From Takakia lepidozioides (Eukaryota; Plantae; Bryophyta), in assembly GCA_030704615.1 (NCBI GenBank), contig CM060733.1, positions 29,388,001 to 29,452,000 on the forward strand: a stretch of 64,000 nucleotides of DNA. The letters run 5' to 3'. Positions within the stretch are counted from its first letter, which is position 1. Each line of letters opens with the position of its first letter. Shown one piece after another: positions 1 through 43,815 of the stretch. The notes below the pieces were generated by a model, which did not search any database, was not told where the DNA came from, and was given only the letters and a program-made list of their open reading frames with translations. The position numbers and the translations under genes were made by a program.

Positions 1-332
1 AAAGACCTCTCCATGTCACTGTATCTATAGGGTCTCCGAAAGATTGGCGTGTCAGTGGCCAACTCAATACGGATCTCTTGACCCTTCAGTGCTCCCAAGT
101 CCTTCAAACTGAAGGCAAAGCAATTCCTGTAAGCCCTCAGGAACCGCCGTATACGTCGTCTCTCTCCTCCGGTGACAATGGGTCCAATGTCAGGCTCCCA
201 ATTGTCCTCCGTAACTGCAACCTTAAGTCAGTGGGCTTAGAGGTAGAGGACGCGTCCTGTGGTTGCTATGCTGCAACCTCTTGAGCAGTACTCCTTCCTG
301 CTCAGTCAATGACAAGGCCTCATCCTGCCCCA

Positions 333-1728
333 TCATCTCATCATTGAGAACCTCCTCAACCCGAGAAGAATCCCAATCTCATCCATCACAGCTGCCTTGG
401 CTGCCAACTCCCTCTGAACCTCGAGCACCTCCCACGTGTGCCATGGATGTCTACACCCCGTGGTCCTCACCGGCTCGCCCCCACTCACTGCCTGTACCGT
501 CTCGGTAGGCAGAGAGACCATGAAGGGGAGTGCACTCCGCACTCTACGTTGCTCAGCCATAGCCAAGCTGATAATCCAGGTCAAGCAATTGAGATCCATT
601 GCTTGCCCCAACACCTGACGCCGTGATGCCTCAGAAAGAGAAGGCACCGTTGTGGTCCCAGTGGAAAACCCCATAGCCCGCTCTCGCTCGTCGGCATTAG
701 GCTCCACTAACTGCTGCAACTGAGCATCCCACAGGAGGCCAGGTCCACCATCCCGAAAAGCATGGGATCCTGGGAAGCTGAGCAGTGTAGGTAATGCTGC
801 TCGTGGTTGACCCACCCTGTTGACCACTGCCAAAGGCGAACGGTCATCGTGTCTCACACGTTGAGACTGCCTCCCTGTGTCCAAAATGCTGTCCACTATG
901 AGGTGTGTTGGCCGCTCCACCCCATCAAATGCACGCTTGAGCAGTGCGGGTGGCATCAAGTTAGTCCACCATAGCCGTGGACGATGAGCCCGTGATCCCA
1001 CTGCAGTTGCATCCAGCAGCACTGCTGACCCAAGCCACGACCGGACTTGATGCACACTGGCCATCACCCTGGCCCGAGAATCGCCCATCAGTGGCACATT
1101 CTCCAAGATGTATGCTGGCGATACAGCTTGATGAAGCTGCAAGTGGCGCAAAATCCGCACCATCTCCCAAAACAGACCCGTCCTCGAGTCTCGCAATCCA
1201 TTGCCATGCCCGGTGATGAATGCCCTTGGCAGGGCCAACCTGCCACTACCAGATCAATGGAGCCAACTGCTCCAAATCCGGCGCCCCCAGCAACGAAATG
1301 TCTGCTGGCAAGGCTTGGTGGTATCCACGAACTGCAGACACTGGCAACAAAGCAGGGTACTGCTGTACCAACTGAGCAACATGGCGCAGTGAGACGCGTC
1401 GTGCAGTCTCATCCCTCTCCACATACAGGTAACGCCTTACCCGCACACCTGCCTGTAGCATAGCAGCCAATCCGGTGCTGATCCCGCCAAACAAGTCCAG
1501 AAGGCAAATGCCTTCATCCGGATACTGCCACACAATAGGTGTGGTATCCAATGGTGACAACTGAGGTGGTCCTGGTGCAATACCCGCACTCTCCTCCTCT
1601 CCTGACGGTACAAAAGCCTCTACCCAGGCTTGTTGCACCCGTCGATCAGCAACCTGCTGCAAATCCTTGCTCGTACCCCACAATGGAGTGTGAGCAGCCA
1701 TGGCAGGCAACTCCGCCATACCATGCAT
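333..1728 (-). pseudogene. DNMT3-like C5 cytosine methyltransferase domain in pol of copy A (frameshifted)
   Basis: Motif I LLDLFGGISTGL, catalytic GWPCQ (in a third frame near 1225-1240, between two 1-nt deletions relative to copy B), LFWEMVR, YILENV, AHRPRLWWTNL, ERAMGF, RRQVLGQAMD. Confidence 0.92.
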
Positions 1729-1734
1729 GTCATC

Positions 1735-3360
1735 CTACTCTGATGGAGGTGGCACATCCTCTGCATGGGCATTGCCTTCCAGCAACTCTCTATTCCATCT
1801 AACTGAAGCTGTAAAGGCGACTAATGTTGGCATCTTGCCCCGCTGGGCAGCCGCTATATCCCCAATGAATGTCACAGGGAGCTGTGCACGGCGACCATTG
1901 CCTGACTGCCATCCAGGCCTGTAGGATGCTAACTCCTCCCAAAAGTCCAGGGTGAAGCCCATGGGGTATAACACTACCCCACCAACGAGGACATCGTAAG
2001 AGACTGCGTCTATCACAATGGCCTTGGCTCGCATTACTGAGCCATCGATAGGATGATCCGGCTGCAGTCTAATGGCCAACTGATGTCGTGTCATGCCCCG
2101 AGCCTGCTCTGATCCTCCCAGAGATGTCTGTATCTGGAAAGGACAAGGCTCCATATCCGCCTCCATGAGGCCCAAACCTGCAATAGCAGCTCTGCCCAAC
2201 ATCAGTGGCTGAGCTCCCGAGTCCAACAAGACCCGCAGTGGCCGGTACTTCTTGCCTGCCGGTCCACTCAAAGTGAAAATGCCTCCCTGGTTGTCTAACA
2301 AGACAACTCCAGGTGTCACCATGGCGCGCTCAAAGGCTGGCCTAGCTGGCAGCTCCGTCAACCTGACAGCTGCAGCTTGCCAGGGCGCAGCCGTGGCAGT
2401 TTTGACCCTCAAATCCGAGGATCCCTCTGCCACTACACCTTCCACTAACTCCGCAGAAGATGAAGTGACATCCCCACTCTCACAGAGTGTTGCTGCTAGT
2501 CGGAACACTGCAGCTGGTCTCACCCCCGGCGTCGCAATCATTGTTGCCGAGAACAGTGGGGCCTGACACACAGAGGTGGCTGCCCCCAATAACACACCGG
2601 CCGCACTAGCCTTGGCAGCAGGTGTCAGTGCTGCACGTGTAGCTCTCCCCAATGGCATAGAAACCTCCGCCTCGGTAACAGTCGGGCGAGAACTAGGTGC
2701 CATGGATGGCGTTGACACTGTCTCCGCCAAGGTGAATGACTGAGGCAGCCTTGCCTGACGGCTTGCCTCCCCACGTTGTGGATCCAACTCCACCTCTGCA
2801 CCTCGTGGCTCAGGAACTCGTGCTGCTCCTCGAGTCACGGCTGCAGCAGACTCCACCTGCTCTAGTGGTAGTGCTGCTCCGCACATGAATCCCATGCCTC
2901 CCATATCTCCTCCCTCAGGAGCAGGAGGTGGACCATCCCGCCTGGGAGCCGGTACCGCCTGAGCTATAGCCATGGCAGCGAGCCTCTGCTCTAGCTGCTG
3001 AAGCCGATTGGCCATGCCTTGGTCAACACCCTGACCTCCGCGTCCTTGGCCATGTGGAGCTTGCCCTTGGCCTGCACCTTGTGCCCGACCACCTCGTCCT
3101 CTTTGGGCTGGTCCACCTCGCCCCCGGCCACCATTGTTCCCTTGGAACTGGCATGGGCGCAACTCAGGATGCAAATCATAACACTGGGCATCTCCATGCC
3201 CATACTTGCCACAATGCCCACACTGCAATTGTGCAGGCTGTGCTTGTGCCGGCCTTTTGCCACTCTCTGGGCAATCTCTCTTGACATGGGGTCCTCCACA
3301 TGTCCAACATATCACCCCTGGTTGCTGTTGGCCTGCAAAAGATGCCACGGGCCTCTGCAC
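1735..3360 (-). CDS. Gag C-terminus with two zinc knuckles, plus retropepsin-like aspartic protease (copy A)
   Basis: CWTCGGPHVKRDC and CGHCGKYGHGDAQC knuckles, RGG-rich tract, VLLDSGAQPLML active-site motif, YDVLVG motif. Confidence 0.88.
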   Translation of the reverse strand: MQRPVASFAGQQQPGVICWTCGGPHVKRDCPESGKRPAQAQPAQLQCGHCGKYGHGDAQCYDLHPELRPCQFQGNNGGRGRGGPAQRGRGGRAQGAGQGQAPHGQGRGGQGVDQGMANRLQQLEQRLAAMAIAQAVPAPRRDGPPPAPEGGDMGGMGFMCGAALPLEQVESAAAVTRGAARVPEPRGAEVELDPQRGEASRQARLPQSFTLAETVSTPSMAPSSRPTVTEAEVSMPLGRATRAALTPAAKASAAGVLLGAATSVCQAPLFSATMIATPGVRPAAVFRLAATLCESGDVTSSSAELVEGVVAEGSSDLRVKTATAAPWQAAAVRLTELPARPAFERAMVTPGVVLLDNQGGIFTLSGPAGKKYRPLRVLLDSGAQPLMLGRAAIAGLGLMEADMEPCPFQIQTSLGGSEQARGMTRHQLAIRLQPDHPIDGSVMRAKAIVIDAVSYDVLVGGVVLYPMGFTLDFWEELASYRPGWQSGNGRRAQLPVTFIGDIAAAQRGKMPTLVAFTASVRWNRELLEGNAHAEDVPPPSE

Positions 3361-3423
3361 CTGAGGTCCCCTGTAAGCTCCATGGAACTTGGGCTGGGCA
3401 ACCTTGCCCCCCTGACCACGCTG

Positions 3424-4464
3424 TTAGGTAGTCCCTTGTGCCTGTGGGCTGACAGCTGTGCCCCGTGCAGGCATGTCCTTGCCAAATCCAATTGTAACAA
3501 CTCGCTCCTCCACAATGTTGAGCTCAATCCGCTCAGCCAGCAGAAACACATCTGCTAATGTGGGTTGGGCTGCTTGTAACAGGGTTGCATCTCGCACCCT
3601 TCTCTTGAGCTCCTTGTCCAGAATTCTATACCAAAACTGGATTGTCTGAGCTTCAGTAACCCCTTGGGTCACACTTATCAAGCGCCTCATACGAGTGTAC
3701 GCCTCTCGCAGGCTCTCACTGGGTTTGCGCTGGAAGTCTTGCAAACTTCGCAGCTTCTCTGTCCGTACACCTTGGTAGTTCCTCCGCAACTCCTGGAAGA
3801 ACTCCACCACCGGGTTGAATCTAGGCACATGTGTTGTAGTCGTGGCAGGAGAAGTAGTAGCACCTTTTGAACTGGTACCACCTGCAGAAGTACCAGCACT
3901 ACTTGCTCCACTACTAGTGCTGGCAGTGGGAGCTATTGGTACTGATGCAACTACTGGTCGCGTCGTGCCTCGAGTAATGGAGACGTAGTCAGGTGACCAA
4001 TATATCCTCCACTCCTCAATCTCTGCTTCATGTCCTCGCCTGAACTCGTGGTAATCGTCCATAGGCGGGCCTTCCAAATGCTGGAACAGTCCCTTCCACG
4101 CCATGAATGGGGTGAATAGCTGTGGATTGCGCATCTGCTGCAAATCACACCAGCTGTCGAACTCCTAGATAAAGTCATCCAACTCGATTGTGCCCACAGC
4201 TCCAGAGTACCTACGAGGCCCCTTGGTAGCTCCATACATCTCCTCCATGTCGTCCCACAACAATGGCGAATGAAAGTGCACACCTGTTGATGAAACCTCC
4301 GAGTCTGTGTCTGACTCTACAGTAATTGAGGGTGGCGGTGAAGGTGGTCTGAACCGAATACCTCGTCTTGTGAACCCACTCTCACTGTTACTGCCTGTAG
4401 CCGTACTCCCCTCAAAACCCTTGGGTAACTCCGTAATGACACTCACAATGTGCACCTCCTCCAC
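3424..4464 (-). pseudogene. Gag capsid region of copy A
   Basis: ORFs 4165-4464 and 3424-4143 are in frame, separated by a TAG where copy B has CAA (FIQEF). Contains a QRKPSESLREAYTRMRRL major-homology-like motif. Confidence 0.82.
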
Positions 4465-7600: not shown

Positions 7601-7614
7601 GCGACAGCTATAGG

Positions 7615-7742: not shown

Positions 7743-8166
7743 TAGTACCCCTTATGCACAGCCCACATAATCCTTCTCCCCCAACAAGCCCACTGGCCTG
7801 CTCAACACAAAGCCCAGCGAAGGCCCTCAACGAGAAGACCCCCGGCGCCACTGACACCACGCCCCCGCAGCCTCTCCATACGCCTGGGCCAGTTACCGGA
7901 TCACCACACGTACCTTGCACCTCGCCAGTAGCTTCACTGGCGCGACTCCTCAAGCTTCTCCAACATGCTGCGATTCTGGATGGGCTACTCTTTGTTTGAG
8001 CAGCATGTTGTGGACGCCGAGCTACCACTCATTGAAGAAGAACGCTCCGGATTCGAACTGCAAAGCATTGGCCTCTGGCGACCATCTCTACTATAATAGT
8101 GCTTAAAAACAAAAACATCATATCTAGCTTAGCACTGGAAAACTAGATAGAGTCATCTCTCTCGAG

Positions 8167-8515
8167 TGATAGAAAAGCTAAGTACACACTGTTGACACAA
8201 AACATGACAACCAAAACCATCACTCTTTAGAATAGAAGTCGAGCCAGGGGCACCCCAAGCTGTGGGGACTCCACCCCACAACAACCTACACTCCCATCAT
8301 GAGCACACTCAGTCCTACACGATGAAGGAGCTCGGTCGCGCAGGCTCAACTCGAGAGAGATGAGCCGCGCGACTGCCGCTCTCGTGAAGATAAGACGGGT
8401 CAGGTGTCAAACTAAACTTGACACCTGATTTAACACTTGACCTAAATCCAAGTGTTAAATACAAATAACTAGCTTTATTCTAGCTAGTTTCACACTGTGC
8501 TTATTTAACTTGACA
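8167..8515 (-). repeat. 5' terminal repeat (X-type LTR segment) of copy A
   Basis: TG...CA ends. Shares blocks with 41405-41731 (GGCTCAACTCGAG, CGTGAAGATAA, CTAGCTAGTTTCACACT, AACTTGACA) and contains several hairpins. Confidence 0.85.
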
Positions 8516-23860: not shown

Positions 23861-26800
23861 TCCTAGTCGGCCCATGCTGGTAAGTATGATGTTAATCATT
23901 CTTTGGTCATCAAGCAACAGAAGAGGATTTTCTTCAAACACCAGGACCTGGTTTAGGTCTGGGGTCATTATGTTACCACCTTAACAAGGTGTTTGCAAGG
24001 TAAAAAAGACATTTTAATGAAGTTCAGAAATGCTATAGTGCCAATACATGTTCAAACCCCAATGTTACACAGGTTTTGAAGTCATAACATCTGAAGAAAA
24101 GGCTGTGTTGCCAGATATCAGAGCAGCTGATATCTTCAATCCAACCTACCAAGAGTCTATAAAGCCAGTACATGTTTTTCTAAAAAAACAAAAGCTTGCT
24201 TTTAGAAGAGTAATTCTGGGTCCCCACCAGTCCATGTTTCTTGTGGAGCAGAAACAATGAGTCCTGTGTTATTTTATTGTAACCCAAAAGCCACAAACAC
24301 AACTGTATACAATCTGTAATTACAGAGTGACATGAAGAGGTAGTAGGTTACTTACCTTAGCAGATTGTATGCAAGGTAAAAAATGAAAGGGGGTTCAGAA
24401 AGCCACAGAGGTTCCATAGATTGAGCACATAAAGGCATACAGGGCTTAGTATAAACTAGATGCAAGCTCTGGCCTCTCCCCTACCGTGTTGCTTGAAAGT
24501 GTACATATCAGAGTAGCAAATCGTGCTCTAAGCATGAAAAAAGAGCATATATTTGGTCTGGAAACCCTACTTCCAGTACCATATTTCAATGCAGCGGAAA
24601 TCATAACCCAGAGTCCTTAATAGAATTCATGTGTTCTAAAAAGGCTCGCTAATGCACTTGCTGCTTCAACACAGAGATAAAGGTTGTAAGCATATCCAGA
24701 TTGGTCAAGGTAGGGAGGCAAAAATGAGACATCTCCCTGGATAATCAGCTGATGTCGATGTCACTTCACTTGCAGGTTTGTCATCAGATTCAAGCTTCAA
24801 AAATCACATTAAGTGAGGACCCTCACCTGGTCCCATCACAAGCCCCCACAAGAACCAACAGGTTAGTGAGAATTGTGGAACCCTAGGTGAATCGGGTCTC
24901 ACGCTTGTTATCGCTGTACAACATGAGTTCTAAAGCAAGAATCAATTCTAAACACAAGCAAGGTTATCCACAACCTTAATCGATTGCGGAAGAGGACTCG
25001 ACATCGCTCCAAGCACTTGACAATCAACAGCACAAACAAGCAATGGTTTGCTGAAATCTATGCGCATTTTAACAGGTGAAGAAACCCCCTGAGTTTTTAT
25101 GAGCAGTGTTGAAACTTAATGATCCAGAGAGGATCTACAAGCAATCGGGTAGCCTAAGGTAGATTGCCCGCCAAGGGAATAGGCCACCATACTGAGGGAA
25201 TTGAAGCACTGCCGCCGTTACGCATCCCAAGGGAGATGAGAAAGGACTGGAATCTTGCCAGAGTACTTGTAAGCAGCATTGAAGCGTCTCCATATCCATC
25301 AAAATCATAAAATTCATGCTAAGAGATCCCTCTGACACCATCACTTCATCTCCCGTAGAAAAAACGCACAGTGTCGTGCAAGATTTATGGCAGGAGAGGA
25401 AATATGGCAAACCATTGTGATTTCATCCATGTGGGATGAAAAATAAGGAATGAAAGGTGAATATTCCCCTGTTGTCATCGCCATGTCATCCAGCAGGGAT
25501 GACATCCTAAAATCGATGACTAGAACCTGGCATTCATTAGGGTTAGATATAAATGACCTTAATAATCCAAAGGAACAAGGTAAAAAATGATAACCAGAAT
25601 TAACATTTAATGGAATTCATCCATTATTAACTATATCCGGTATGGATGAAGATAGCAGAAAGTTAATTATAGTTTAGTAAAAAATTACCTTAGTACCAAA
25701 CCCTCTGGGTTATGGAATAAGTTACCAACAGGATCCATGTACAGAGGGAGAGAGAGAGGGAGAGAGAGGGGGAGAGGGAGAGGGAGAGGGAGAGGGAGAC
25801 AGGGTGCATGACAAAAAAAAAAAAAAAAAAAAAAGGTGGGTGCGGGGGGGGGGGGAGTGACTGAGCAGCAGAAGCTGCTCAGTCAGCCCCCCCCCCATCC
25901 TTCTTTTTTGTTTTTTTTATCCTCTCGCTCTCTCCCTCTCTCTCTCCCTCTCCCTCTCTCCATCTCTGTCCCTCTCCATCTCTCTCTCTCATGTTTTTCT
26001 TTCCATTTTGTCCCATAAGCTCGATGAGCTTCCCGCGGACGTTATAACGCACCATTTCATTTCATTTCTCTCTTCTCTCTCCCTCTGCCCCTATCCCTCT
26101 CTCTCCCTCTGTTTTGTCACTCCCCACAAAAAGGAACAAAGGAGAGAGGGAGAGGGAGAGCGCCTACCTCTGTGGCGTCGGCGCTGCTGCCTACGGCGTG
26201 TGTCCCCGCCGCCGGAAGGCCTCCCTCCCCCGCTCCACCACGCCTCTCTCTCTCTCTTGTGCTGCTGCTGCTCCCGCCTCTATGCGGCTTTCCTACCACC
26301 CAGGGGACAGAGGTGTTAGCACCCTCTTAGGGTTTGGAGAGGAAGAGTGGAAGTGAGAGAAGGAGGGAGCTTACCAGCGGGATTGGAGTGGCGCTAGGGC
26401 GTCTTTGCGTGGCGACCACCTCACGCTCAAGACGAGGTTAGTTTCTCCTCCACATTCTCCCCTACACTCTCAGCCCTGTCCCTCCCAAAGGAGAAATGAA
26501 AACGGGGGGGGGGGGGCAGGTGCTTCAAGCACTTAGAAAAAAAAAAAGGCGCGGCGCCGATCTGCCACGCCTGGCCGTCACATGTCGGCGCCCCGCCTTT
26601 TTTTTTAATGTACATTGAAGCTTGCCACGCCCGGCCGTCGCAGCGTGCGACCCCCCGGCGTGGCAAGGTAAAAAAACCCGTCGCAGCCTGCGATCCCCCG
26701 GCGTGGTAGGGTCAAAAAATCCGTCGTATGATGCGACGCTGGGTAGTGGCATGAAGCATGGCAGGGCGTCGCATGCCCAGGCTCCCCCTTGTATGTTGGG

Positions 26801-28450: not shown

Positions 28451-30337
28451 CCCTATTTAGAGTTAGAGGGGCGACGCTTTTGTTTTCTGATGATCATAAC
28501 TCTACCATCTCGGTACACCGTGTAGTGTCCCTGTGCCCGAGCCTGTTTAACTTGCGAGTTGAGCCCGCATGGCATTGTACTGCATGGGGGTCAAATCCTC
28601 ATTCAAATACATGTCGTGGGCTCTAAATTGAGGCCTCTGACGTAGAACCCTCTCCCGAGCACCCTTGTCCCTAAATCTGATGAACAAGACTTTGTGCTAT
28701 GAAGTTCCTGCATGCACAACTCAGCCTTAGATTTGTCTTTCTAAGTTGTGTCTATGACGCCAATTTACTACAACTTCATCTGCATCAATGGGGGGAGCGC
28801 ATAGCACTAACGGAGCTGCCAGTAGGTAGGGATGGAGTCTTTCCATCCAATTCGTGAGTTGAAAATCTGCCTACAGAAGACATTGTCTTTTCCCCAAGAG
28901 TCATTCGAAGGTTGCAAGCAACCGGGTTCTCCTTATATTGTCGCATTTGGGAAGAGCTCATGTCACAAGTACAAACCAGGATTTGCGAGCCTCAGACATT
29001 AGGCCTGAGTGAGCCAAGTACAACACCTTATGTAACACAATGGATAGCATTTTGAAAGACTACTACACACCTCATTTTCCAAATATGCTAGACTACAGTT
29101 CCTCTTAGCGATTCCCAAACTGGACGAGCAAAAAATGTTCCCTTTTCTGATGGTCAGTAGCAAAGAAAGAGTAGATCAGTAGTTTAGATTCGGGGTCTAT
29201 AAAGAATACTAGTCTTTCTCCAAACCGCATCTGCAAAAGTCACTAGGCAATGTTCTATATCTTCTGGAGAATGCAGATTGTAGGTAGTACAATTAGAAGG
29301 AGCATCAGAAAAGAGAGCGCCAACATGAATGATTCTGTTAGCTATCTTCCATCGAAATACATCAATCTTAGATGATCTGTGCTTCTTCCAGATATCTCCC
29401 TAGACAGGTTTCCAAGGGATAGGATGTCCTGGTACAAGAGCCCATTTGTTGGTCCATTTGCGTTCAAAGATCCGCTTTGGCATAGGCAGAATGTAACCCA
29501 GTCTCATTGAATAGCTTAAGACTGGTCATGGTTTTTCCGAATCCATTCTCCAGGGTCAAACTGCAGCAGTCTCAAGGGAGCAGATAGAACCAGTGAAATG
29601 AGCGATTATAGTGACGTAGCTCAGCAGCCGATGGAAGCGGATTCAGTTTACCCGAGATCGAGCAGAATGTTAGATTTATCAAATACAAATATTAATATAA
29701 ACATAATACCTATAGTATGAGCTCTCTCCTAACCATAGAAGACATTCTAAAAACAAATGCCTCATCCCTGAACTCGTCTCTTACATGAAGGTCTAGTACT
29801 GAAGTGGTTGTAACTACCAGTTCACTTATTATTGACTCATTAACCTACTGAATGAACTCATCCTCTAACACTACCACTTAGGTTGTTGGTAAGTGCAGCA
29901 CCATTTAATGTATCACTCAAAGTTGATAATGAGAAGACATCAGTCCAAGTTTAGTCTAGAGGTGATCAATCTCTCAATAGCTATTAACTGGAAATTAATG
30001 TCATGGACATTAATCTTCAAGTAATTCTAAGAGGGTTCCATATGAAAGGACTACCGCTCAAAGTCCGGTGACACATTTCTCATGCTTGAACTTGGTCAAT
30101 GATTTTGTAAATATATCAGCAATATTATTTTCAGTAGTGCAATAATGTAACTTCAGAAATCCTCCCCTGTTGCATTTAAAAATAATAATAATGCGGACAA
30201 CATAATTACGGTAAATTTGAATACCCAAGATATAATGAACCGGACCATTATCAGTCATTCCATAAGTGGATTTTAGCTTATTTTTTGTGTCCAAGAGTAA
30301 ACCAGAATTATCAGAAAATAATAGAGCATCATCCACA

Positions 30338-30526
30338 TGTCGTACGCATACATATCGCTACACAACTACATCGTTGTCCAAAACCACACAACACATGTGC
30401 ACGCCACACACTAGTATATCACTAGTCCATCACTAGTCCAGCCACTAGTCCAACCACTAGGCTACAACTAGTCAGTCACTAGGCTGGCACTATGCTGCCC
30501 ATTATGGCAGTCACTAGTCCACACAA
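30338..30526 (-). repeat. Repeat Y, outer copy (3' terminus of copy B)
   Basis: Near-identical to 30856-31043; rich in CACTAG motifs. Confidence 0.95.
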
Positions 30527-30853
30527 TGATAAAGAAAAAGAATACAAGCACAAGCTCATGCGAGCTCACAAAGCTGAAGCATAAACTCATGCATATATAA
30601 CCTCATCACTCAAATACAAGTCAAGCCAAATGCACCCCACGCCATGGGGAATCCACACTACGACGTCATAGCTAGGCGCGGTGAGGCTCAACTCGAAAAA
30701 GATGAGCCTCCCGCGCTTGCCGTGAAGATAACCACTCCAGGGCCTAAATCTGCCTTGACCCCTAGATTGACACTTGGGCAAATCCCAAATGTCAATATGT
30801 AAAAACTAGCTATTTCCTAGCTAGTTTCACACTAGTGGTAAAATAACTTGACA
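30527..30853 (-). repeat. Repeat X, internal 3' copy
   Basis: 327 bp, about ten substitutions (counted by eye) relative to 41405-41731. Confidence 0.95.
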
Positions 30854-30855
30854 GT

Positions 30856-31043
30856 TGTCGTGCGCATACATATCGCTACACAACTACATCGTTGTCCAAA
30901 ACCACACAACACATGTGCACGCCACACACTAGTATATCACTAGTCCATCACTAGTCCATCACTAGTCCAACCACTAGGCTACAACTAGTCAGTCACTAGG
31001 CTGCCACTATGCTGCCCATTATGGCAGTCACTAGTCCACACAA
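30856..31043 (-). repeat. Repeat Y, inner copy, directly downstream of a polypurine tract
   Basis: Near-identical to 30338-30526. The minus strand reads AGGGGGGCGA (31044-31053) then TTGTGTGG. Confidence 0.95.
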
Positions 31044-31302
31044 TCGCCCCCCTAGCTGGTGCTTAGGTCCCTCTAAGTCCAGGTAGCCACAAGATGTGAT
31101 AGTGACCATAGCCTCACTAAGTCTTCCACCACTATCCCTACTACACTCAAACTCGATAGATCAAGAGGCCGGGTGCAAGAGTTGCCCCATCGTTAGTCGC
31201 CGTCTTGCAACCTATGAACTTGAGCTTGGGATCTCATGTATTAACTCCTATGAGCTTGGCCTCCCATGTCTTGTTAGCTGCCTCCAGTCATGTCCATTGC
31301 CA

Positions 31303-31446
31303 CTATCCCAAGTAGTGTGGACACAACCAATCTCCGTCAGGAACCTTCTCAAGAGGTGGAGTTAAGCATCCCATATGCCAACCCCTTGAGCATCGATCAC
31401 ACGCCAGCATGGTGGCTGCCCCTTTGGCAAACCCACAGAGCATGCA
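31303..31446 (-). pseudogene. PHD finger at the integrase C-terminus
   Basis: Manual translation: CMLCGFAKGAATMLACDRCSRGWHMGCLTPPLEKVPDGDWLCPHY*. This is a C4HC3 pattern with the last Cys changed to Tyr; it is not in the ORF track. Confidence 0.9.
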
Positions 31447-31544
31447 CCTCAAACCTGCAGGTGCCACTGCCAAGTTTGGGTCAACTCTGCCATCGACATT
31501 GGGAAGATGACATGGCGCACAATTACGAACATGGTCCTTTTAAG

Positions 31545-33491
31545 TCATGCCATCCGACCCTCCAAGATCAGGACCCCTGAGGGCAACACCTCTCGAACCC
31601 TCAGAATAACACGCCCTGCAGTAACATCCAGAGTCGTAGGAGCAGTCTGCTGCAAATAAACATAGTCACCAGGGCTAAACCTCCGAACCCCAGGACGATA
31701 TCCTCCACCACGTATAGTGGCATACCTCAACGTATCACGGTGCTGTGCAATGGCAAGGTTATCAAAAGCCATGGGCATGACTTTCTTGAACAACTTTGCA
31801 CGCTGATCACATGCACGTACCGACACGTCCGGATCGTCAAGGTTAAGGACTTGAGCAGTGTCCCTACGAATGGCTGCAGGCAAATCCGGCTCTCAGCCAA
31901 ATAGAAGGAAATATGGTGAGAAGGAGGCAAGTGATGCTTGTTTGCTGAACCTGTAGCCCATGGCTAACCAATGAACCTGAAGATCCCAATCTCCTAGGTG
32001 TCCCTTCTGCAAGCCATACTTGCGCAAACCCCTCTTCACCGTCTGAACAACTCTCTCTGCTAAGCCATCGGCCTCAGGATGATCCCGAGAAGTGGTGCGG
32101 TGGTTTATCAAGGCTTTATCACACAAAGCCTGAAACTCCCCCAAGAACTCTCTCCCTTGGTCCATGAGTACCTCAGCTGGAGCACCAAATCGGCTAAGTA
32201 CACGATCCAAGAATGCATACGTAGCCCCCTCACTAGCCTTGTCAGGCAATGGAACCAACTCAATCCACTTGGAGAAGTGCTCCACCATCACCAACACATA
32301 TCTGTGGTGGCGCATAGTCAGTGGCAACGGTCCTGCGAAGTCAAGACTCCACCTGTAGCCCAATCCCATGATTGGTAAAGGATGCAACTGTGGTGTAGGG
32401 GTGTTGAATGAAGCACGCACCCTGTCACACACCATGCACCTAGCCACGAACTGTTGCACCTCTCTATGCATACCACGCCACCAATACTGCCCTTGCAGTA
32501 AACTGTGAGTACGTCGCACTCCAAAATGCCCCAACTCCTCATGGGCATGCCGCACTAACCGTGCACGCTGTGTGGGGTGAGGCACAATCCTCACCCGACC
32601 ATCCTCCCACACTCGAAGTAGGTGTATCCCCTCCCACTTGAACCTCTTGGCTCGTTGCAGGATCCGATCCCTCTCCCTGGCAGTCACAATGGCTGCCGTG
32701 TCTCCCGTGCGGAGGTAGTCCAACACAGCCGAATCCTCATGTATATCTCTGGCACCACCTGGCTCATCACTAGCCTCAGGGTCCTCAGACACTCCGTCTA
32801 CAGTCATCCCTGTTGTAGGTCCAACCTGACCTCCCGATGCCAAGATACACAAAAATGCAGATGCGTGCCATCCCGGCACCATCTCCTCGTCCGTCTCACC
32901 ATGCCACCGAGCTCCAGTGTCATCTTGCTGGCTCATGCATGGATTGCGACTCAATCCATCCGCATCTCGATTGACCAAACCCAGTCGATGCACAACCTGA
33001 AAGTCATACTCCTGGAGTATGAGCGCCCACCGTGCAAGCTTCCCCGTAAGCTTGTCTGACTCCATCAACCACTTGAGTGGCTGGTGATCTGTGACAAGGG
33101 TGAAAAGATTGTTGTATAGATAGCACCTGAAGTGTGCCACGGCCCACACTGCAGCTAAGCACTCTCCCTCATATGAGCTGTACTTAGCCTCTACAGCGTT
33201 GTTTGAGCGGCTAGCATAAGCCACTACGAACTCTTCTCCCTCATCATCCACCTGTGTGAGCACCGCTCCAAGCCCCAGCATGCTCCAATCCGTATGCAGC
33301 TGAAAGGGACGCCCCCTGATAGGTCGTCTCAGGATAGGTGCCGAGGTCAACCTCGCCTTGAGCTCTTGAAAAGCTCGTTCCTGCTCATCTTCCCACTGCC
33401 ACTCCTGGTCCACCTTGGTCAGCTTGGTTAGAGCCTTTGCAATGGTACTAAATCCCTTGACAAACCGTCTATAATAGTTTGCCAACCCCAT
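31545..33491 (-). CDS. RT connection, RNase H and DDE integrase of copy B
   Basis: GLANYYRRFVKGFS, LHTDWS, YEGECLA, TDHQPL, NRDADGLSR, H-H-C-C finger (HEELGH...CMVC), WSLDFAGPLP, DQGREF, DGLAERVVQ, FSPGDYVYL. Confidence 0.95.
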
Positions 33492-34300
33492 GAAAGCTCG
33501 AACTCAGCTCACATCCGTGGGGCGTGGAATTTGTGCAATGGCCTCTACCTTAGTCTGCTATACCCCCAATCCTCCTGGATATATCATGTGACCTAGATGC
33601 TCAATCTGGTTGTGGAAAAACTTGCACTTCCCCGGATGCAACTTCAATCCGTGCGCTCTCAAGCGCTCCAATACCACCTGAAGGTGTCTCTCATGCTCCT
33701 CCATCGTAACACTAAAGATGATGATGTCATCTATGTAGCACCGAGCAAAGTCCACCCCTGCTAGAATCCTATCCATGACTCTCTGAAACTCTGCAGGAGC
33801 ATTCTTAAGCCCAAATGGTAAGAACCGCCACTGATATAGGCAATCATTGCCATGCTCATTGATCCCCTAGAATGCCGTCTTCTGCTTGTCCGCCTCTTTG
33901 ATTGGCAACTGGTGATATCCGGATCATAAATCCAAAGTGCTAAAGACCTTAGCATGCCCGATGGCATCAAAGATCTCCTCTGGTGTTGGCATGACATACT
34001 TATCGGACTTGGTCTGACAATTTACAGGCCGGTAATCACCGCACATACGTCTCTCTGTCCAATTGCCATAGACATCCTTCTTGGCTGGCATCACTGTGGC
34101 TGAAGCATACTCTCCACCAGAGAGCTCCACCAAACCTGCCTCCCAGAGATCTTGAGTCCTCATCTGAATCAAAGACCTCTCCATGTCACTGTATCTATAG
34201 GGTCTCCGAAAGATTGGCGTGTCAGTGGCCAACTCAATATGGATCTCTTGACCCTTCAGTGCTCCCAAGTCCTTCAAACTGAAGGCAAAGCAATTCCTGT
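33492..34300 (-). pseudogene. Gypsy reverse transcriptase of copy B (nonsense mutations)
   Basis: RMCGDYRPVN, FSTLDL, LPFGLKNAP, CYIDDIIIFS, LKLHPGKCKF, with in-frame stops. Confidence 0.93.
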
Positions 34301-34739
34301 AAGCCCTTAGGAACCGCCGTATATGTCGTCTCTCTCCTCCGGTGACAATGGGTCCAATGTCAGGCTCCCAATTGTCCTCCGTAACTGCAACCTTAAGTCC
34401 AGTGGGCTTAGAGGTAGAGGACGCGTCCAGTGGTTGCTATGTTGCAACCTCTTGAGCAGTACTCCCTACCTGCTCAGTCAGTGACAAGGCCTCATCCTGC
34501 CCCATCATCTCATCCTCAAGGACTTCCTCCACCCGAGAAAAATCCCCAACCTCATCTTTCATCGCCACCTTGGCTGCCAACTCCCTCTGAACCTCGAGCA
34601 CCTCCCACGTGTGCCATGGATACATGCACCCCGTGGTCCTCACATGCTCGCCCCCACTCACTGCCTGTACCGTCTCGGTAGGCAGAGAGACCATCGAGGG
34701 AAGTGTACTCCGCACTCTGCGTTGCTCAGCCATAGCCAA

Positions 34740-35700
34740 GCTAATAATCCAGGTCAAGCAATTGAGATCCATTGCTTGCCCCAACACTTGACGACGTGAT
34801 GCCTCAGAAAGAGACGACACCGCCGTGGTACCAGTGGTAAAAACCCATTGCCCGCTCACGCTCGTCAGCATTAGGCTCCACTAACTGCTGCAACTGAGCA
34901 TCCACAGGAGGCCAGGTCCACTATCCCGGAAAGCATGCGATCCTGGGAAGCTGAGCAGTGTAGATAATGTTGCTCGTGGTTGACCCACCTTGTTGACCAC
35001 TGCCAAAGGCAAACGGTCATCGTGTCTCACACGCTGAGACTGCCTCACTGTGTCCAGAATGCTATCCACTGTGAGATGTGCTGGCCACTGCACCCCATCA
35101 AATGCACGCTTGAGCAGTGCGGGTGGCATCAAGTTAGTCCACCATAGTCGTGGACGATGAGCCCGTGACCCCACTGTAGCTGCACCTAGCAACACTGCTG
35201 ACCCAAGCCACGACCGGACTTGATGCACACTAGCCATCAGCCTGGCCCGAGAATCGCCCATCAGTGGCACATTCTCCAAGATGTATGCTGGAGATACAGC
35301 TTGATGAAGCTGCAAGTGGCGCAAAACCCGCACCATCTCCCAAAACAGACCCGACCTCGAGTCTCGCAATCCATTGCCATGCCCGGCTGATGAATGCCCT
35401 TGGCAGGGCCAACCTGCCACTACCAGATCAATGGAGCCAACCCGCTCCAAATCCTGCGCCCCTTGTAAAGAAATGTCTGTTGGCAAGGCCTGCTGATATC
35501 CACGAATTGCAGACACCGACAACAACTCAGGGTACCGCTGCACCAACTAAGCAACATGGCGAAGTGAAATGCGTCGTGCAGTCTCATCCCTCTCCACATA
35601 CAGATAACGCGGAACTCGTACACCTGCCTGTAATACAGCAGCCAATCCGGTGCTGATCCCGCCAAACAAGTCCAGAAGACAAATGCCTTCATCCGGATAC
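34740..35700 (-). pseudogene. DNMT3-like C5 cytosine methyltransferase domain of copy B
   Basis: LLDLFGGISTGL, IDLVVAGWPCQGHS, LFWEMVRVL, YILENV, AHRPRLWWTNL, RRQVLGQAMD. Confidence 0.93.
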
Positions 35701-35992
35701 TGCCACACAATAGGTGTGGTATCCAATGGAGACAACTGAGGTGGTCCTGGTGCAATCCCCGCACTCTCCTCCTCTCCTGACGGTACAAAAGCCTCCACAG
35801 CTTGTTGAACCCGTCGATCAGCATCCCGCTGCAAATCCTTGCTTGTGCCCCACAATGGAGTCTGAGCAACCATGGTAGGCAACTCCGCCATACCATACAT
35901 GTCATCCTCCTCTCCCGGAGGTGGCACATCCTCTGAATAAGCGTTGCCCTCAAACAACTCTCTAGGCGAACTCACTGTCGCTGTGAATGCTG

Positions 35993-38623
35993 CTATGTCG
36001 GCATCTTGCCTCGCTGGGCAACCGCAACTCCTCCTATGAACGTCACAGGGAGCTGCACACGCCGGCCCTCCCCTGACTGCCATGCAGGCCTATAGGAAGC
36101 TGACTCCTCCCAAAAATCCAGGGTGAAGCCCATGGGGTACAACACTGCCCTACCAACCAGGACATCGTATGAGACCGCGTCTGTCACAATGGCCTTGGCT
36201 CGCATCACTGAGCCATCTGTAGGGTGATCCGGCCGTAGTCTGATAGCCAACTCACGCCGTGTCATGCCCGAGCCTGCTCCAATCCTCCCAGAGACGTCTG
36301 TATCTGGAAAGGACAAGGCTCCATATCCGCCTCTGTGAGGCCCAAGCCTGCAATAGCAGCTCTGCCCAGCATCAATGGCTGAGCTCTCAAGTCCAACAAG
36401 ACCCGCAGTGGCCGGTACCTCTTGCCTGCCAGTCCACTCAAACAGAAAATGCCATCCTGGTTGTCTAACATGACAACTCCAGGTGTCACCATGGCGCGCT
36501 CAATGGCTGGCCTAGCTGGCAGCTCCATCAACCTGGCAGCTGCAGCTTGCCATGGCGCCACCGTAGCAGTCTTGACTCTCAAATCCGAGGATCCCTCCGG
36601 CACTACACCTCCCACTATCTCCGCAGAAGATGAAGTAACCTCCCCACTCTCACAAAGTGTAGCTGCCAGCCTGAACACCTCAGCTGGTCTTACCCCCGGC
36701 GTCGCAATCATGGTAGCCGAGAACAATGGAGCCTGGCACACAGATGTGGCCACTCCTAGCAGCACACTAGCTGCCGTAGCCTTGGCAACACTAGGTAGTG
36801 GTGCTACCAGTGTAGCTCTCCCCAATGGCATAGTAACCTCCGCCTTGGTAACAGTCGGGCGAGAACTAGGTGCTATGGATGGCGTCGACACTGTCTCCGC
36901 CAATGTGAATGACTGAGGAAGCCTAGCCCGACGGCTTTGCCTCCCCACGCTGTGGATCAACTCCACCTCTGCACCTCGTGGCTCAGAACTCGTGCTGCTC
37001 CTCGAGTCACACGGCTGCAGCAGACTCCACCTGCAACTAGTGGTAGTGCTTCTCCACACATGAATCGCCATGCCTCCCATATCTCCTCCCTCAGGAGCAG
37101 GAGGTGGACCATCCGGCCTAGAGCCTTACCACCAGAGCTGTAGCCATGGCAGGCGAGCCTCTCTGCTCTAGCTGCTGAGCCGGTTGGCCATGCCTTTGTC
37201 AACACCTGACCTCCGCGTCCTTGGCCATGTTGAGGCTTGCCCCTTGGCCTGCACCTTGTGTGACTGGCCACCCTCGTCCTCTTTGGGCTGCTCCACTCGC
37301 CCCGGCCACCATTGTTCCCTGGAACTGGCCTGGGCGCAACACAAGATGCAAACCATAACACTGGGCCTCTCCATGCCCGTGCTTGCCACAATGCCCACAT
37401 GCTTTTAACTGTGCAGGTTGTGCATGTGCTGGCCCTTTGCTCGCGCTCTGGGCAATCCTTCTTGACATGGGGTCCTCCACATGTCCAGCACACCACATCC
37501 GCCCGTTGTTGGCCGGCAAATGAAGGGAGAGACCCCTGCATCTGAGGTCCTTTCTGCCCTTCCCTGAGCTTCACCTGAGCCCCCTTGTTGCCTTGAGCAC
37601 GTTGAGGTAGTGGTTGGCTAGGAGCACCACCCCCCGTGGTGTCTCTTTAGCAAATCCCACCATGACCACTCGTTCCTCACCATATTGAGCTCTATCCGCT
37701 TTGCCAGCAAAAACACATTTGCTAAGGTGGGTTGGGCGCTTGGGATTGTAGAGAGAGTTGCATCCCGCACCCTTCTCCTCAGCTCCTTGTCAATATCCCA
37801 TACCAGAATTGGACTGCCTGAGCTTCCGTAACCCCTTGGGTTACATTTATCAAGCGCCTCATGCGAGTGAAAGCCTCCCTCAAGCTCTCGGTCGGCTTCC
37901 GTTGGAACTCTTGCAAGCTCCGCAACTTCTCTGTCCTCACCCCTTGGTAGTTCCCTCTCAACTCTTCGAAGAACTCCACAACAGGGTTGAAGGCAGGCAC
38001 GGGTACTAGTGCTGGTGCGGTAGTGGCTTGGGTGACGTCGTAGCTACTGTACCACCAGTCCCACTAGTCCCACTGCTACTTGCTGAAGCTGCCGGTGCAG
38101 CGGCAGGTGTAGCCACTGCCCTCGTGGCTCTAGTGCCCCTAGTGATGGAGACATAGTCGGGTGACCAGTACATCCTCCACTCCTCGATCTCAACCTCATG
38201 CCCCCGCCTGAACTCATGGTAATCATCCATAGGCGGCCCCTCAAGGTGCTGAAACAGCCCCTTCCATGCCATGAAAGGCGTAAATAGTTGTGGATTGCGC
38301 ATTTGCTGCAAATCACACCAACTATCAAACTCTTGGATAAAATCATCCAACTCGATGGTGCCCACCGCCCCAGAGTACCTTCGTGGCCCCTTGGTAGCTC
38401 CATACATCTCCTCCATTGTGTCCCACAACAATGGCAAAGAAACAACTTGCACCGCCGGTATGAGTCCTCCTGATTCACAATCCGAATCAGAACCTTCCGT
38501 AGAAGACACAGGAGGTGAAGGTGGCCTAAACCGCACACCTCGTCTCGTGTACCCACTAGTATCGCTAGTGCTCGAACCGGCACTGTCCCCAGCAACTAGT
38601 GGCACCTCCGTGTTGACACTCAA
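35993..38623 (-). pseudogene. Gag, zinc knuckles and protease of copy B (many frameshifts)
   Basis: Collinear with copy A: YSGAVGTIELDDFIQEFDSW, CWTCGGPHVKKDC, CGHCGKHGHGEAQC, VLLDLRAQPLML. Confidence 0.88.
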
Positions 38624-38899
38624 CCGGTCATGAACATGTCCCTAACCCCCTCTCCACAAGGTAACCGGGTAGAGAACCTGTTGCGGCTTATGGTTTGGAA
38701 TACTAAGTTCCTAACATAGCCTACACCTGTATTTGCATGACCATTGGATATCAGTGATTACTCCTCAAACCGCCCTCCACGAGCTTCAAAATTTGGCCTT
38801 CAAGACCACATGCCAGTCCTTAGGCAGTCCACCAGTGCCTCCAGATCAGCACAGGCCCGTCCACAGGTCAACACGGGCCACCACATACCAGCACAGGCC

Positions 38900-39880
38900 C
38901 ACACAGCTCACTGGTCACAGCCGTCAGCCCCAACAGGCCACTGGGCTTAGCCGTCACAGCCCGCCGCAGCCTGTTTACAGCCCTCGACAGCTCGTCACGC
39001 CCCCGCAGCCTGTTTTACAGCCCTCACAGCTCGTCACAGCTCGCCACAGCCTTCCACAGCCCATCACAGCCTCACAGGCCACATGGCATAGCCTGTCATA
39101 GCCCCCAATACTCACACATCCTGTAACAGCCCCGTCACAGCCCCACAGGCCCAGGCACAGCCTCTCATAGCCCCTCACAGCCGTCACAGCTTGCCACAGC
39201 CCGTCACAGTCCCACAGGCCACAAGGCGCAGCCTGTCACAGCCCGTCACAGCCCCATAGGCCATAGGGCATAGCTGTCACAGCCCCTCACAGCCCGTCAC
39301 AGCCCCATGGCCACTGGGCTTAGCCTTCACAGCCCTCACAGCCGTCACAGCTCGCCACAGCCTGTCACAGCCCCACAGCCACGGGCACAACTTGTCACAA
39401 CCCGCCACAGCCTGTCACAGCCCACACAGCCCGTCACAGCCCCACAGGCCACTGGGCATAGCATGTCACAGCCCATCACAGCCCCACAGGCCACAGGGCA
39501 CAGCCTGTCACAGCCCCTTATAGCCCGTCACAGCCCCACACCACGGGGCACAGCTGTCAAGCCCCTCACAGCCCGTCACAACCCCACAGGCCATTGGGCA
39601 CAGCCTGCACAGCCTATCACAGCCCCTCACAGCCCCAAAGGCCTCAGGCATGGCCTACACAGCCCCTCACAGCCCCTCACAGCCCCAAGGCCTCAGGCAC
39701 GGCCTGTCACAGCCCCTCACAGCCCATCACAGCCCCAAAGGCCACGGGCCCAGCCTGTCACAGCCTCTCACAGCCCGTCACAGCCCCAAAGCCAAGGGCG
39801 CAGCCCATCACAGCCCGTCACAGCCCCAAAAGGCCACCGGCATAGCCCCTCACAGCCCGTCACAGCCCCATCCATGGCCG
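38900..39880. repeat. ~1-kb degenerate minisatellite (TCACAGCCC core) in the leader of copy B
   Basis: Dozens of CACAGCC units in short higher-order blocks. Confidence 0.92.
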
Positions 39881-41404
39881 CTCTGGCAGTTTAGCCATTT
39901 CTCCAAGGGGTTTAGCCACGCTAAGCTAGGGTTTGTGTCTCTTGGACTCTAGGCTTCTTTCCACCGAGCTATGGCGGCTGTGAGGAAATCAGCAAGGTAT
40001 TCTTGCTCTTTCGGCTCCCACACACCACCATAGTAGCCCTAAGCCATGAGGTGGTTGCCACAAACCAAGCCTTCTTTTCTCAATGGCAAACAACCAAAGC
40101 CCTGCTGGTTCCCAGCCCTTGTGAGCACTCATTCAAGCACTCTCCTTGGCCATAGCATCTGTCTTAGAGCCTATTCCAGCCCCCTACACTTGCTGCTTCA
40201 AGAGTTGCGCTCCCTTCAAGCTTGAAGTTGAAACCCCAACTCTTATAGGCCCTACAAGTGCTTTTCTTTCACTCCAAGTGGAAACCAGCCCTAGACCTTC
40301 CGTTCTAGCTCTCTAAAGCTGAAAACAAGAGCCTCAATGGGCTGAAGGCATGCTCCACACATGCCCCACTCTCACCATAAGAGAATCAGCTCCTTTGCTT
40401 CATTTCTTGCACCCACAAACCTGAAAATACAAGCTTCAGCAGGTTGAAAGCATGCTCCACATGCCCTACAGGGAAACCAGCCCCTTCCTTCCTTTCTTGC
40501 ACTCCACACCCGAAAGTGCAAGCCTTCACCAGGCTGATAGTATGCTCCACACATGCATTGCCCTCACATAAGGGAAGTCAGCCCTTCCCTCTTCCTTGCT
40601 TGCCCTCCAAGCTTGAAGATGAAAGCTTCAATGAGCTTAATACATGCTCCACACATGCAACCTCTTCACACAAGAGATATCAGCCCCCTATCTTGGCTCC
40701 TTGGCTCCTTGATGCTCTCTAAGACAAGACTAAGCACTCCATAGCCCTTGCCAAGCTGAAACCCTAAGGCTTACATTTCCAGCCACAAGACACTCATCTT
40801 GTGGTGCAAGAACTTTTCTTCCAAACTCTGAAACCCTAGGTACACATTCCATGGCCTTGCCGCACCTCTTAGCTCCTGTTCCAGCCCCGCTCTTGCCATG
40901 GCAAGAGCCCTCATACCGCTGGAGTTTCAGATTGAAACCCCCAACTCAACATAGCCACAAATGCATTGGCTTGCATACAAGAGAAATCAGCCATCTCTCT
41001 TCACTCATACCTCCTTATGAGCTTGAAGTTGGAGCTCCCGATAACTGTGACTTACATCTAACACCCTCGCAGCTCCACTTTGCTGCAGCTCCTTAACTTG
41101 GCCTGCAGCTGAAGAAGACGACCACCCGTTCACCCACTCGAGACCAGCATCTCCCCCGCTTCACACTAGAAGCCCAAACTTGGTTGCCATAGCGTTGAGC
41201 TATGCAACGCCGCTCTTCAACATAGGCTACCCGCCTCTCTATCTATTGCAAACCTGCAACCTGTTCGCCTTTGCACTCTATCTACTTTGGATAGGCTCAT
41301 GCACGGATCCCTGCACTCTAGGCTAAACCGCTTCTCATGAAAACACAAGTGCTACAAAACAACTCGAACCTGGCACTCACAGACTTGAGCTGATCTTTCT
41401 CGAG

Positions 41405-41731
41405 TGATAACGAAGAAGAATACAAGCACAAGCTCATGCGAGCTCACAAAGCTGAAGCATAAACTCATGCATATATAACCTCATCACTCAAATACAAGTC
41501 AAGCCAAGTGCACCCCACGCCATGGGGAATCCACACTACGGCGCCATAGCTAGGCGCGGTGAGGCTCAACTCGAGAAAGATGAGCCTCCCGCGCTTGCCG
41601 TGAAGATAACCACTCCAGGGCCTAAATTTGCCTTGACCCCTGGATTGACACTTGGGCCAATCCCAAATGTCAATATGTAAAAGCTAGCTATTTCCTAGCT
41701 AGTTTCACACTAGTGGTAAAATAACTTGACA
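41405..41731 (-). repeat. Repeat X, 5' terminus of copy B
   Basis: Minus strand reads TGTCAAG...TTATCA, followed by the PBS-position sequence CTCGAGAAAGAT. Confidence 0.95.
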
Positions 41732-43815
41732 CACATACAAAGCGATAATGGTAATGAAACGGTTGAAACGATTAATGTACACATTAGAGTCGGATGAACT
41801 AGGAATCCAACACCATGAAGGTCAGTGTCAATGGGCTCATACCACACTTGAGGAGCTTGTTTAAGGCCATGAAGGCTACGGAGCAACTGATACACATTTG
41901 TTTCGTGGCCAGGTTTAACAAAGCCTTCAGGTTGAGACATATATATAGAGAGAGAGAAGACTCCGGCCGAAGCCGGCGTAACTAAGAGCCACTTTGCCCT
42001 ATGGCTACTATCCCCTTTCGGGGGTGGTTGAGACATATATAGTACTATGCAAAGTAAATTACTATGCAAAAAAGTTGTCTTAACATCCATTTGATGGACC
42101 TCCCAGTTATGGACCGCAACCAAGGCTAACAAAGTATGAATTGAAGTTATCTTAACAACACGAGAAAATGTGTCTTGATAATCAACCCCTATCACTTGAG
42201 AATAGCCCTTGGGCATAAGATGTGCATTATACCGTTCAACGATGCCATTGGCTTTAAGTTTAATTTTAAACAACCATTTGCAACAAATGGGCTTACGGCC
42301 TACCGGCAATGCAACTAAGTCCCAAGTATGATTCTTGATGAGAGAGTCATATTCAGAGGTGATCGCCGCTTGCCAATATTGAGAGTCAGATCGAGAGTTG
42401 ATGGTCTCTTGATAAGACAAAGGCTCTGTCAAATTAGGGACACTCTAATGATAATTAGGATATTTAGGATTAGGCTTGAGTTTCCTACCGTATCGAGAGG
42501 TAGAGGATGTAGGAGTAAGTTTATCAAAGGTAAACCCAAAAAAGTCAAGTCCGGGAAATGCTCCCACAACATCAGCCCCACTGGTTGACTTGGAAGGGAG
42601 AATTGTACCTCTGCAATAGGGGTCATCGTCATGATCAGAATAAAATAATGGATTATTAACCAGAGATTGGTGGGAAGGCGTGGAGACTAGAAACTAATGA
42701 CCAGAGGAGGGAGACCTGGAAGAGGTTGGGGAACATTAGGAACGTGTGGATGTGGAACCATAAGAGGGACAACATTATTATATAGGGGCCCCACCACAAA
42801 CTTATCAAGTTCTGAAGTAGGTGGTATAACCTCAGAGCATCCCCACTCTACGCCTCTATGGACCCTGCACCCGTACTTCTCGTATGTAGGTTCAGATTCG
42901 CCTCCAAACGTACCACACCTTTGCCCCACTACCGTATACGCCGTTAAGGGCGGACACTGAACCGCCTCTCTTTCACTGAATACGTGCACAATATTCAGTC
43001 TCCTACATCCGTTCTTGAACCGAGTCGTCCCGACCATGGATATGTCAGAACGCACCGCCCAGCCTCTCCCGCGTTGGTAGTGAAGGTAGGCGGTGGGTCT
43101 CGAACGTGATATGAGAACATCACTGGAAACTCCAACAAGGCGGGAACATAGGATGCAGGGGCGTAACGAGGGGCAAAGGTGTGGCTACAGGCAGCCAACC
43201 CCTTCATACACCTTTCGAGAGTCCTAAACCAACCCCTTCACAATAGCTATAGAGGGGCCATTTCAGTGAGAAGGGTGGGGATGCTCTCATGTACAACTGC
43301 TGTAACACGTTTTTCTCCGAAAAGAGTGGTGGTTTCGGAGGAACGAAGAAGCGGGGCGCAAAAGAGCTTTTAGACTTGCACATGGCGCTTCCAAGCTCTG
43401 CCCGGGCACTAACGTTCCCACACCAAAATGCCCTCAGAGCCTTTTGAGGCTTCATTTTCCAACCCATCAAGAGCAAGGCATGCCATTACCTAGAAATTGC
43501 ATAATAAAAAGCAAGGAGTCAATTCGTCAACCCTGGTCCATATTGGATTTCGGTGCCCCCTTGGTTTTAAGGGTGCCGAATGTAGGAAAGCTCAATTCCT
43601 GTTCAGTCGTTTTGTAAATCTTCTTGAAAAATTACATCATGACTAAAAATGGTTGTCTTAGCTTAAATGTCATAAAGCCGATAATCTTTGGTAGATTCGC
43701 CATATCCCAAGAAGCCACATTGATGGGTTTTACTATCCCAATTTTTCTATGCTCCTTAAGAAGATGAGCATAAGCATAGCATCTAATATTCTCAAATGAG
43801 ATATAAAAGGCTTAA

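Follow-up and report, generated by a model that had tools for sequence, protein, structure and literature searches.

The window analyzed here, a 64,000-nucleotide stretch of the Takakia lepidozioides genome, contains two dead copies of a Gypsy retrotransposon that its sequence places in the Gypsy-Dnmt3 (KnitGypsy-Dnmt3) lineage as a land-plant variant. Its DNMT3-like cytosine methyltransferase (DNMT) forms the end of the Gag-protease frame and does not share an uninterrupted frame with the reverse transcriptase (RT), because a conserved in-frame stop precedes RT. We favor, as probable on balance, a reading in which this stop is leaky, the DNMT is packaged in the manner of Gag, and the element's cDNA is what it methylates. 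The DNMT-RT stop, a PHD finger, and the element ends were all overlooked in the first-pass annotation of this DNA.

That annotation described a Gypsy element with a full C5 methyltransferase domain inside pol. The Gypsy assignment is borne out by the domain order protease-RT-RNase H (RH)-integrase (IN) and by the DDE integrase (Table 1). The domain lies between protease and RT in both copies, with motifs I, II, IV, VI, VIII, IX, and X in canonical order; the PF00145 profile matches the copy 2 piece above the cut-off (E 4e-13) and the copy 1 piece below it (0.0016). "Full" holds for motif content and not for the reading frames, as the copy 2 frame is broken by a stop at 35549 and by frameshifts close to 34901 and 34839, and that of copy 1 by frameshifts close to 1258 and 1211. 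The copy 2 frameshifts look private, since at both sites contigs from the family's other copies show one-base indel differences. A gag match (PF03732) on copy 1 is weak.

Table 1. Coordinates of the element copies and their parts in the window
Feature	Position	Strand	Basis or remark
Copy 2, whole element, 11.4 kb, A-internal-B-A-B, ends TGTCA...CGACA	30338..41731	-	self-BLAST, end alignments
4-bp target site duplication TGTG, left copy	41732..41735	-	end alignments
4-bp target site duplication TGTG, right copy	30334..30337	-	end alignments
Repeat A1, 327 bp, TG...CA; inferred promoter-proximal U3 + R-U5	41405..41731	-	10/327 differences vs A2
Predicted self-primer (inferred 5' end of the transcript), complementary at all 12 nt to the primer-binding site (PBS)	41570..41581	-	0/1000 shuffles match
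PBS adjoining A1; not tRNA-type TGG start	41393..41404	-	
Leader tandem repeat array, ~10-bp core, higher units 42-50 bp	38951..39868	no strand	
gag, frameshifted in copy 2	37446..38416	-	tblastn with Marchantia P0007
Aspartic protease, with frameshift in copy 2; copy 1 keeps LLDSG intact	36035..36460	-	
DNMT3-like C5 cytosine methyltransferase of copy 2, broken by one stop and two frameshifts	34690..35720	-	DLFGG 35672-35658, YVE 35600, GWPCQG 35414-35397, ENV 35276, HRPR 35159, ERER 34863, GQAMD 34781
In-frame TAG then CAA CCA between DNMT and RT, copy 2; predicted readthrough signal	34431..34439	-	stop 34439-34437
Reverse transcriptase (YIDD), decay stops present	33560..34298	-	PF00078 E 2e-24
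RNase H	32950..33500	-	PF17917 E 5e-35
DDE integrase + H2C2 zinc finger; D, D, E all present	31575..32640	-	PF17921, PF00665, translation
PHD finger ending integrase	31306..31539	-	PF00628 E 1e-10
Polypurine tract (PPT) AGGGGGGCGA adjoining B1	31044..31053	-	same in moss-associated loci
Repeat B1, 188 bp, inferred distal U3, ends CGACA	30856..31043	-	3/188 differences vs B2
Internal B/A junction CGACA-AC-TGTCA, near-palindromic, predicted integrase cutting site	30849..30860	-	
Repeat A2	30527..30853	-	
Repeat B2, abutting A2 end	30338..30526	-	
Copy 1, gag-protease-DNMT-RT start; truncated by window edge	1..4380	-	subfamily 86% identical to copy 2 over 4.4 kb
DNMT3-like domain, copy 1, two frameshifts	561..1551	-	matching motif positions 1497, 1425, 1240, 1103, 986, 689, 608
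TAG CAA CCA stop, copy 1	260..268	-	stop 268-266
Diverged A repeat + PBS, compensatory change in primer/PBS pair	8153..8515	-	71-72% to A; complement at least 13 nt

The likeness to DNMT3 noted at first reading is upheld by profile comparison and by the modeled fold, both of which put DNMT3 nearest. Against solved structures, the window piece finds DNMT3A/B first but weakly (E 1.5e-4; HhaI 4e-4). A profile of ten related domains matches DNMT3A at 3.5e-19, whereas the top DRM-type entry reaches 2.6e-8 and HhaI 8e-7. The predicted structure of an unbroken relative, L006 (pLDDT 81, pTM 0.84), retrieves exclusively DNMT3A/B/C among the matches listed (E 1.5e-17, TM 0.66). The host DNMT3 gene of non-seed plants is defined as multi-exon with a C-terminal DUF3444 (PMC6453930), whereas the domain here is intronless and sits inside a retroelement; in the Marchantia relative P0007, PF00145 was all that a Pfam scan found. 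Viral contigs searched with the window piece contained no relative, and a search of viral contigs with the profile gave 14 weak, partial matches to methylases of phage type, which does not indicate a viral donor.

Both copies carry an in-frame TAG CAA CCA between DNMT and RT. A stop at the same codon is present in 47 of the 48 loci that span this boundary (31 TAG, 16 TAA), the remaining locus having two TAG codons a few positions upstream, and the following codon is CAA in 46 of the 48. Stops attributable to decay reach at most 15/62 in any column of the DNMT alignment. The conserved stop is common to three families despite differing flanking residues, and the gag-protease-DNMT proteins of Marchantia and Calypogeia have their C-terminus 95-99 residues past motif X. 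In P0042 and P0047 of Klebsormidium nitens, the DNMT-RT frame is continuous. Placement of the domain inside pol, in one frame with RT, is thus contradicted by both copies and by 47 of the 48 loci. The first-pass annotation had set a continuous protease-DNMT-RT frame as a test of its reading; the land-plant form fails this test, and passenger capture does not follow from that.

An RT-RH-IN-PHD product is very probably generated through UAG readthrough. The stop context resembles the type I (TMV-type) leaky context of plant viruses, UAG CAA UYA (PMC2754532), but deviates from it in having CCA or CCC in place of UYA. The self-priming retrotransposon Tj1 likewise requires a stop after Gag (PMC4600332). 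Reinitiation is a possible alternative in the main moss family, in which an ATG lies two codons past the stop; the window and loci L002 and L072 have no such ATG. With this arrangement, the DNMT would be synthesized at the Gag level, exceeding RT and integrase in amount, and its packaging would likely match that of Gag in abundance.

Named matches to the element come from Marchantia polymorpha, M. paleacea, Riccia, Calypogeia, Sphagnum, Klebsormidium, and Closterium, with no vascular plant among the named matches listed. The 80 metagenome loci that we gathered represent mostly one moss-associated family in repeated assemblies and are not independent. We built midpoint-rooted FastTree trees of DNMT and RT, without host DNMT3, DRM, or an outgroup, from 61 sequences with near-full versions of both domains, out of about 300. 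The 10 elements that carry the DNMT ahead of RT all fall in one clade (support 0.99 in the DNMT tree and 0.95 in the RT tree), which takes in window copy 2, Marchantia, moss loci, and K. nitens P0042. Joint membership with P0042 in both trees assigns the window element, by sequence, to the KnitGypsy-Dnmt3 lineage; it is filed as a variant differing in expression type because the conserved stop parts DNMT from RT.

The other 51 tree sequences have the DNMT positioned after RNase H. A large related group carries the same type of DNMT between RNase H and integrase, often in long unbroken open reading frames (loci L067, L069, L075, and L080; proteins P0048, P0049, P0051, and P0164-P0295). The order RT-RH-DNMT-IN-PHD is complete in 35 of the 300 proteins and partial in many more, and one RT-RH-DNMT-IN protein is annotated as pol of Scenedesmus sp. 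The seven loci of this group examined for repeats all lack flanks.

A DNMT-bearing Gypsy element with split repeats is already known from Klebsormidium, as the first-pass annotation had noted in part: KnitGypsy-Dnmt3 of K. nitens has DIRS-like A-coding-B-A-B repeats and a Ka/Ks below 0.2 (PMC5890265). The window element shares with it the Gypsy order protease-RT-RH-IN with a DDE integrase, a DNMT3-like domain that lies unrearranged and without introns between protease and RT and is under purifying selection, and the repeat arrangement. It differs in the DNMT-RT stop, in its land-plant host, and in abundance, with few copies described in K. nitens. Summed contig depth in sequencing runs, which is not copy number, is ~10^6 on the element compared to ~60 on flank contigs and suggests that the window family is very abundant. 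The text covered from PMC5890265 makes no mention of a PHD finger, a self-priming site, a PPT, or a 4-bp duplication.

The PHD finger that ends the integrase is followed by a stop. Its best solved relatives are CHD4, PHF12, KDM5, DPF3, and PHF21A, and it is without the Trp of H3K4me3 cages. Such PHD fingers mostly bind unmethylated H3K4, the mark read by the ADD domain of DNMT3. Here, the finger may bind unmethylated H3K4 tails and thereby steer insertion, a role to which we give even chances. Tf1, Tj1, and Tcn1 similarly combine a PBS complementary to a site in the 5' repeat with a reader domain at the integrase end (PMC4600332, PMC6317226); the window element differs from them in having a PHD finger instead of a chromodomain, a DNMT domain, and permuted rather than ordinary long terminal repeats (LTRs). 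The EpiLTRs of Cymbomonas and Euglena are also LTR elements with a cytosine methyltransferase and a chromatin reader, but theirs are DNMT4-related domains, a Dam methylase, and a chromodomain, and their authors treat the streptophyte Gypsy-DNMT3 as a separate acquisition (bioRxiv 10.64898/2026.05.21.726589).

What a Gag-level DNMT would act on is a separate question. It could methylate the element's cDNA and thereby deliver new copies premethylated, a proposal that we consider evenly balanced. It could instead act mainly in trans on chromosomal DNA, for self-silencing or insertion-site marking, or only bind DNA or nucleosomes, with the cDNA not a target; we regard this as rather unlikely. The large excess over RT and integrase that the stop would give fits action in trans, and de Mendoza et al. 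listed self-restraint as an option. The K. nitens domain produced no methylation in yeast, a result deemed inconclusive by its authors, and the DNMT3 of SymbioDIRS-Dnmt3 was shown to methylate CG there (PMC5890265). A purely structural role sits poorly with the catalytic Cys, which is retained in 64 of 64 aligned loci, and the related group, where RNase H and integrase flank a fused DNMT, points to a cDNA or integration complex as its place of action.

The ends of the element suggest an unusual route to the chromosome. A complement of the PBS lies inside repeat A; it measures 12 nt in copy 2 and 13 nt or more in the diverged A at 8515. Such a complement (9-16 nt) occurs in 10 of 16 decayed loci, two of them at a second site, and is absent in the six others. 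Primer and PBS co-vary in the diverged A and in the moss family, as Tf1-type self-priming would predict. By analogy to Tf1, the transcript in all likelihood primes its own reverse transcription, through the 12-nt match in A1. As the PBS lies at the end of A and the PPT precedes B1, the ordinary LTR is B+A and the inserted form a permutation of it; reverse transcription would then produce linear B-A...B-A DNA.

Three features of the inserted copies bear on how this DNA was joined to the chromosome. First, 4-bp duplications flank copy 2 and 6 of 6 loci that retain both ends (five exact, one with one mismatch). Second, the B/A junction, CGACA-NN-TGTCA, forms a near-palindrome, and each half of it corresponds to one of the inserted ends; its spacer is GC or AT in related loci. 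Third, the A2/B2 join varies. The window, L011, L033, and L066 show a near-precise join, whereas L018 has an insertion and L038/L040 keep 9 nt of the PBS; this variation would be the pattern of end-joining where native cDNA ends meet. Foamy virus integrase is known to cleave palindromic LTR junctions (PMC1180852). We think it likely that integrase would cut ordinary B-A...B-A DNA at the internal CA-NN-TG of the left repeat rather than at the DNA ends, and that the native ends would be end-joined, either before insertion (as a 2-LTR circle) or after it, giving A-internal-B-A-B.

This 3' B-A-B end is seen in moss-associated loci L011, L018, L033, and L066. No B was found upstream of the 5' A in any of the 18 loci with a full 5' A (15 distinct insertions), and the form A-B-A-internal-B occurs in none of these 18. 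The asymmetry needs an extra assumption because a symmetrical 2-LTR circle also predicts A-B-A-internal-B; use of the left site because it becomes double-stranded first would be a speculative one. Separately, we do not read single-B 3' ends (L019, L023, L026, L031, L034, L042/L053, L027, and L052) as proving insertion of 1-LTR circles. L034 and L066 have a common flank but end in B and B-A-B, respectively, so such ends can be explained by collapsed assemblies or by recombination.

An unlikely alternative to internal cutting would follow the split-repeat elements PAT and Ngaro: the whole A-internal-B-A-B unit would be transcribed and remade by template switches, with no end-joining and with the B/A junction as the template for the ends. 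It would account for the single orientation of the permutation, and an identical A1-coding-B1-A2-B2 layout of split direct repeats exists in the tyrosine-recombinase elements PAT, Toc, and Ngaro. Those elements (DIRS/PAT/Ngaro) make no target duplication (PMC4157794), however, whereas the window element, which differs in this from SymbioDIRS-Dnmt3 as well, has a DDE integrase, a Gypsy RT, TG...CA ends, and 4-bp duplications. No tyrosine recombinase match was found among the element open reading frames scanned. Also arguing against template switching are the PBS and PPT, which sit precisely where A ends and B starts, the variable join, and the PBS remnant in L038/L040.

The DNMT domain is under purifying selection. 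Estimated by the Nei-Gojobori method with codons containing gaps or stops excluded, dN/dS between the two copies is 0.26 (bootstrap 0.16-0.42, 310 codons), compared to 0.33 for protease and 0.08 for gag; between the window and moss-associated loci it is 0.05-0.10 (4 of 6 comparisons, the other two being saturated), as low as in RT, RNase H, and integrase. The first Arg of motif VIII matches in just 45 of 67 loci, and its losses are probably CpG decay. CpG observed/expected is 0.47-0.52 in the element and 0.43 in one flank, so the element is no lower and CpG depletion gives no clear sign of self-methylation. That the DNMT is a captured host fragment riding in a decaying family, as the broken state of both window copies and the host-gene fragments upstream of copy 1 might suggest, is highly improbable given these dN/dS values, a domain position that is the same in Klebsormidium, liverworts, and mosses, the agreement of the DNMT clade with the RT clade, and 508 clusters (50% identity) that match the DNMT profile at E<1e-30, among which host enzymes may be included.

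Other features of the window were also recorded. The diverged A repeat is probably the 5' end of copy 1. Between it and copy 1 gag, at 6100-8000, are intronless host-gene fragments, including a PAS domain (E 1e-5), a glycolate-oxidase-like FMN_dh piece (E 3e-25), and, on the opposite strand, a TruA-like pseudouridine synthase piece recognized by eye; these are possibly cargo in the copy 1 leader. The leader is interrupted at 4460-5710, where a minus-strand open reading frame (4984-5709, 241 aa) has no Pfam match. Divergence between the copies drops from a dS of ~1 in gag to 0.18 in DNMT and 0.02 at the RT start (1-200 compared to 34171-34373), a gradient that suggests recombination between subfamilies. 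Copy 2 splits a decayed copia element between the YV and DD of its RT YVDD codons (RVT_2 at 41713-42444, the rest below 30337). Two SPARK ectodomains and a kinase piece (49500-52500, minus strand) constitute a SPARK receptor-like kinase gene or pair; the best match, a Physcomitrium SPARK kinase at 49%, would fit a non-seed land plant as the likely host. Direct repeats of 1.3 kb (19306-20615 and 21745-23064, 97.5%, ~1.1 kb between them), which contain a 74-bp tandem unit, are possibly a short non-autonomous LTR element, and inverted-repeat structures at 25743-25989 and 14450-15020 are possibly MITE-like.

A broader reading, which we offer tentatively and think less probable than the favored one, would see here an ancient green-plant-wide Gypsy lineage. 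Its DDE integrase would routinely cut an internal palindrome, it would carry both a DNMT3 writer and a PHD reader, and readthrough in its land-plant branch would raise the writer to the Gag level and deliver premethylated copies; CpG methylation beside the cut site might possibly choose the repeat. On this reading, LTR finders would have overlooked the lineage because its repeats are permuted.

Within a literature search that had figures, supplements, and most subscription papers outside its reach, we found no account beyond de Mendoza 2018 of bryophyte members, a readthrough stop, self-priming, a PHD finger, or a split-repeat Gypsy element, nor any description of evidence for internal-site integration or of the RT-RH-DNMT-IN order. 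Two later papers mention "streptophytes" without naming species in the passages covered, and their supplements may already include bryophyte members.

Use of an internal integration site is a route met chiefly in side reactions of retroviral 2-LTR circles, and the ends described here are sequence evidence for a DDE integrase using such a site instead of the cDNA ends. Surveys such as REXdb, which demand an LTR pair enclosed by a target duplication, would miss these elements, and gene annotations (UniRef names) list their DNMTs as host methyltransferases. The stop shifts the expected dose of the enzyme from the Pol level to the Gag level. Work on the role of retrotransposon-borne cytosine methyltransferases has been held back since 2018 because the known hosts, Symbiodinium and Klebsormidium, are hard to manipulate. 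Methylation mutants exist in Marchantia (bioRxiv 10.1101/363937), and the M. polymorpha relatives P0001 and P0007 have unbroken gag-protease-DNMT frames, which makes the role of the DNMT testable in that species.
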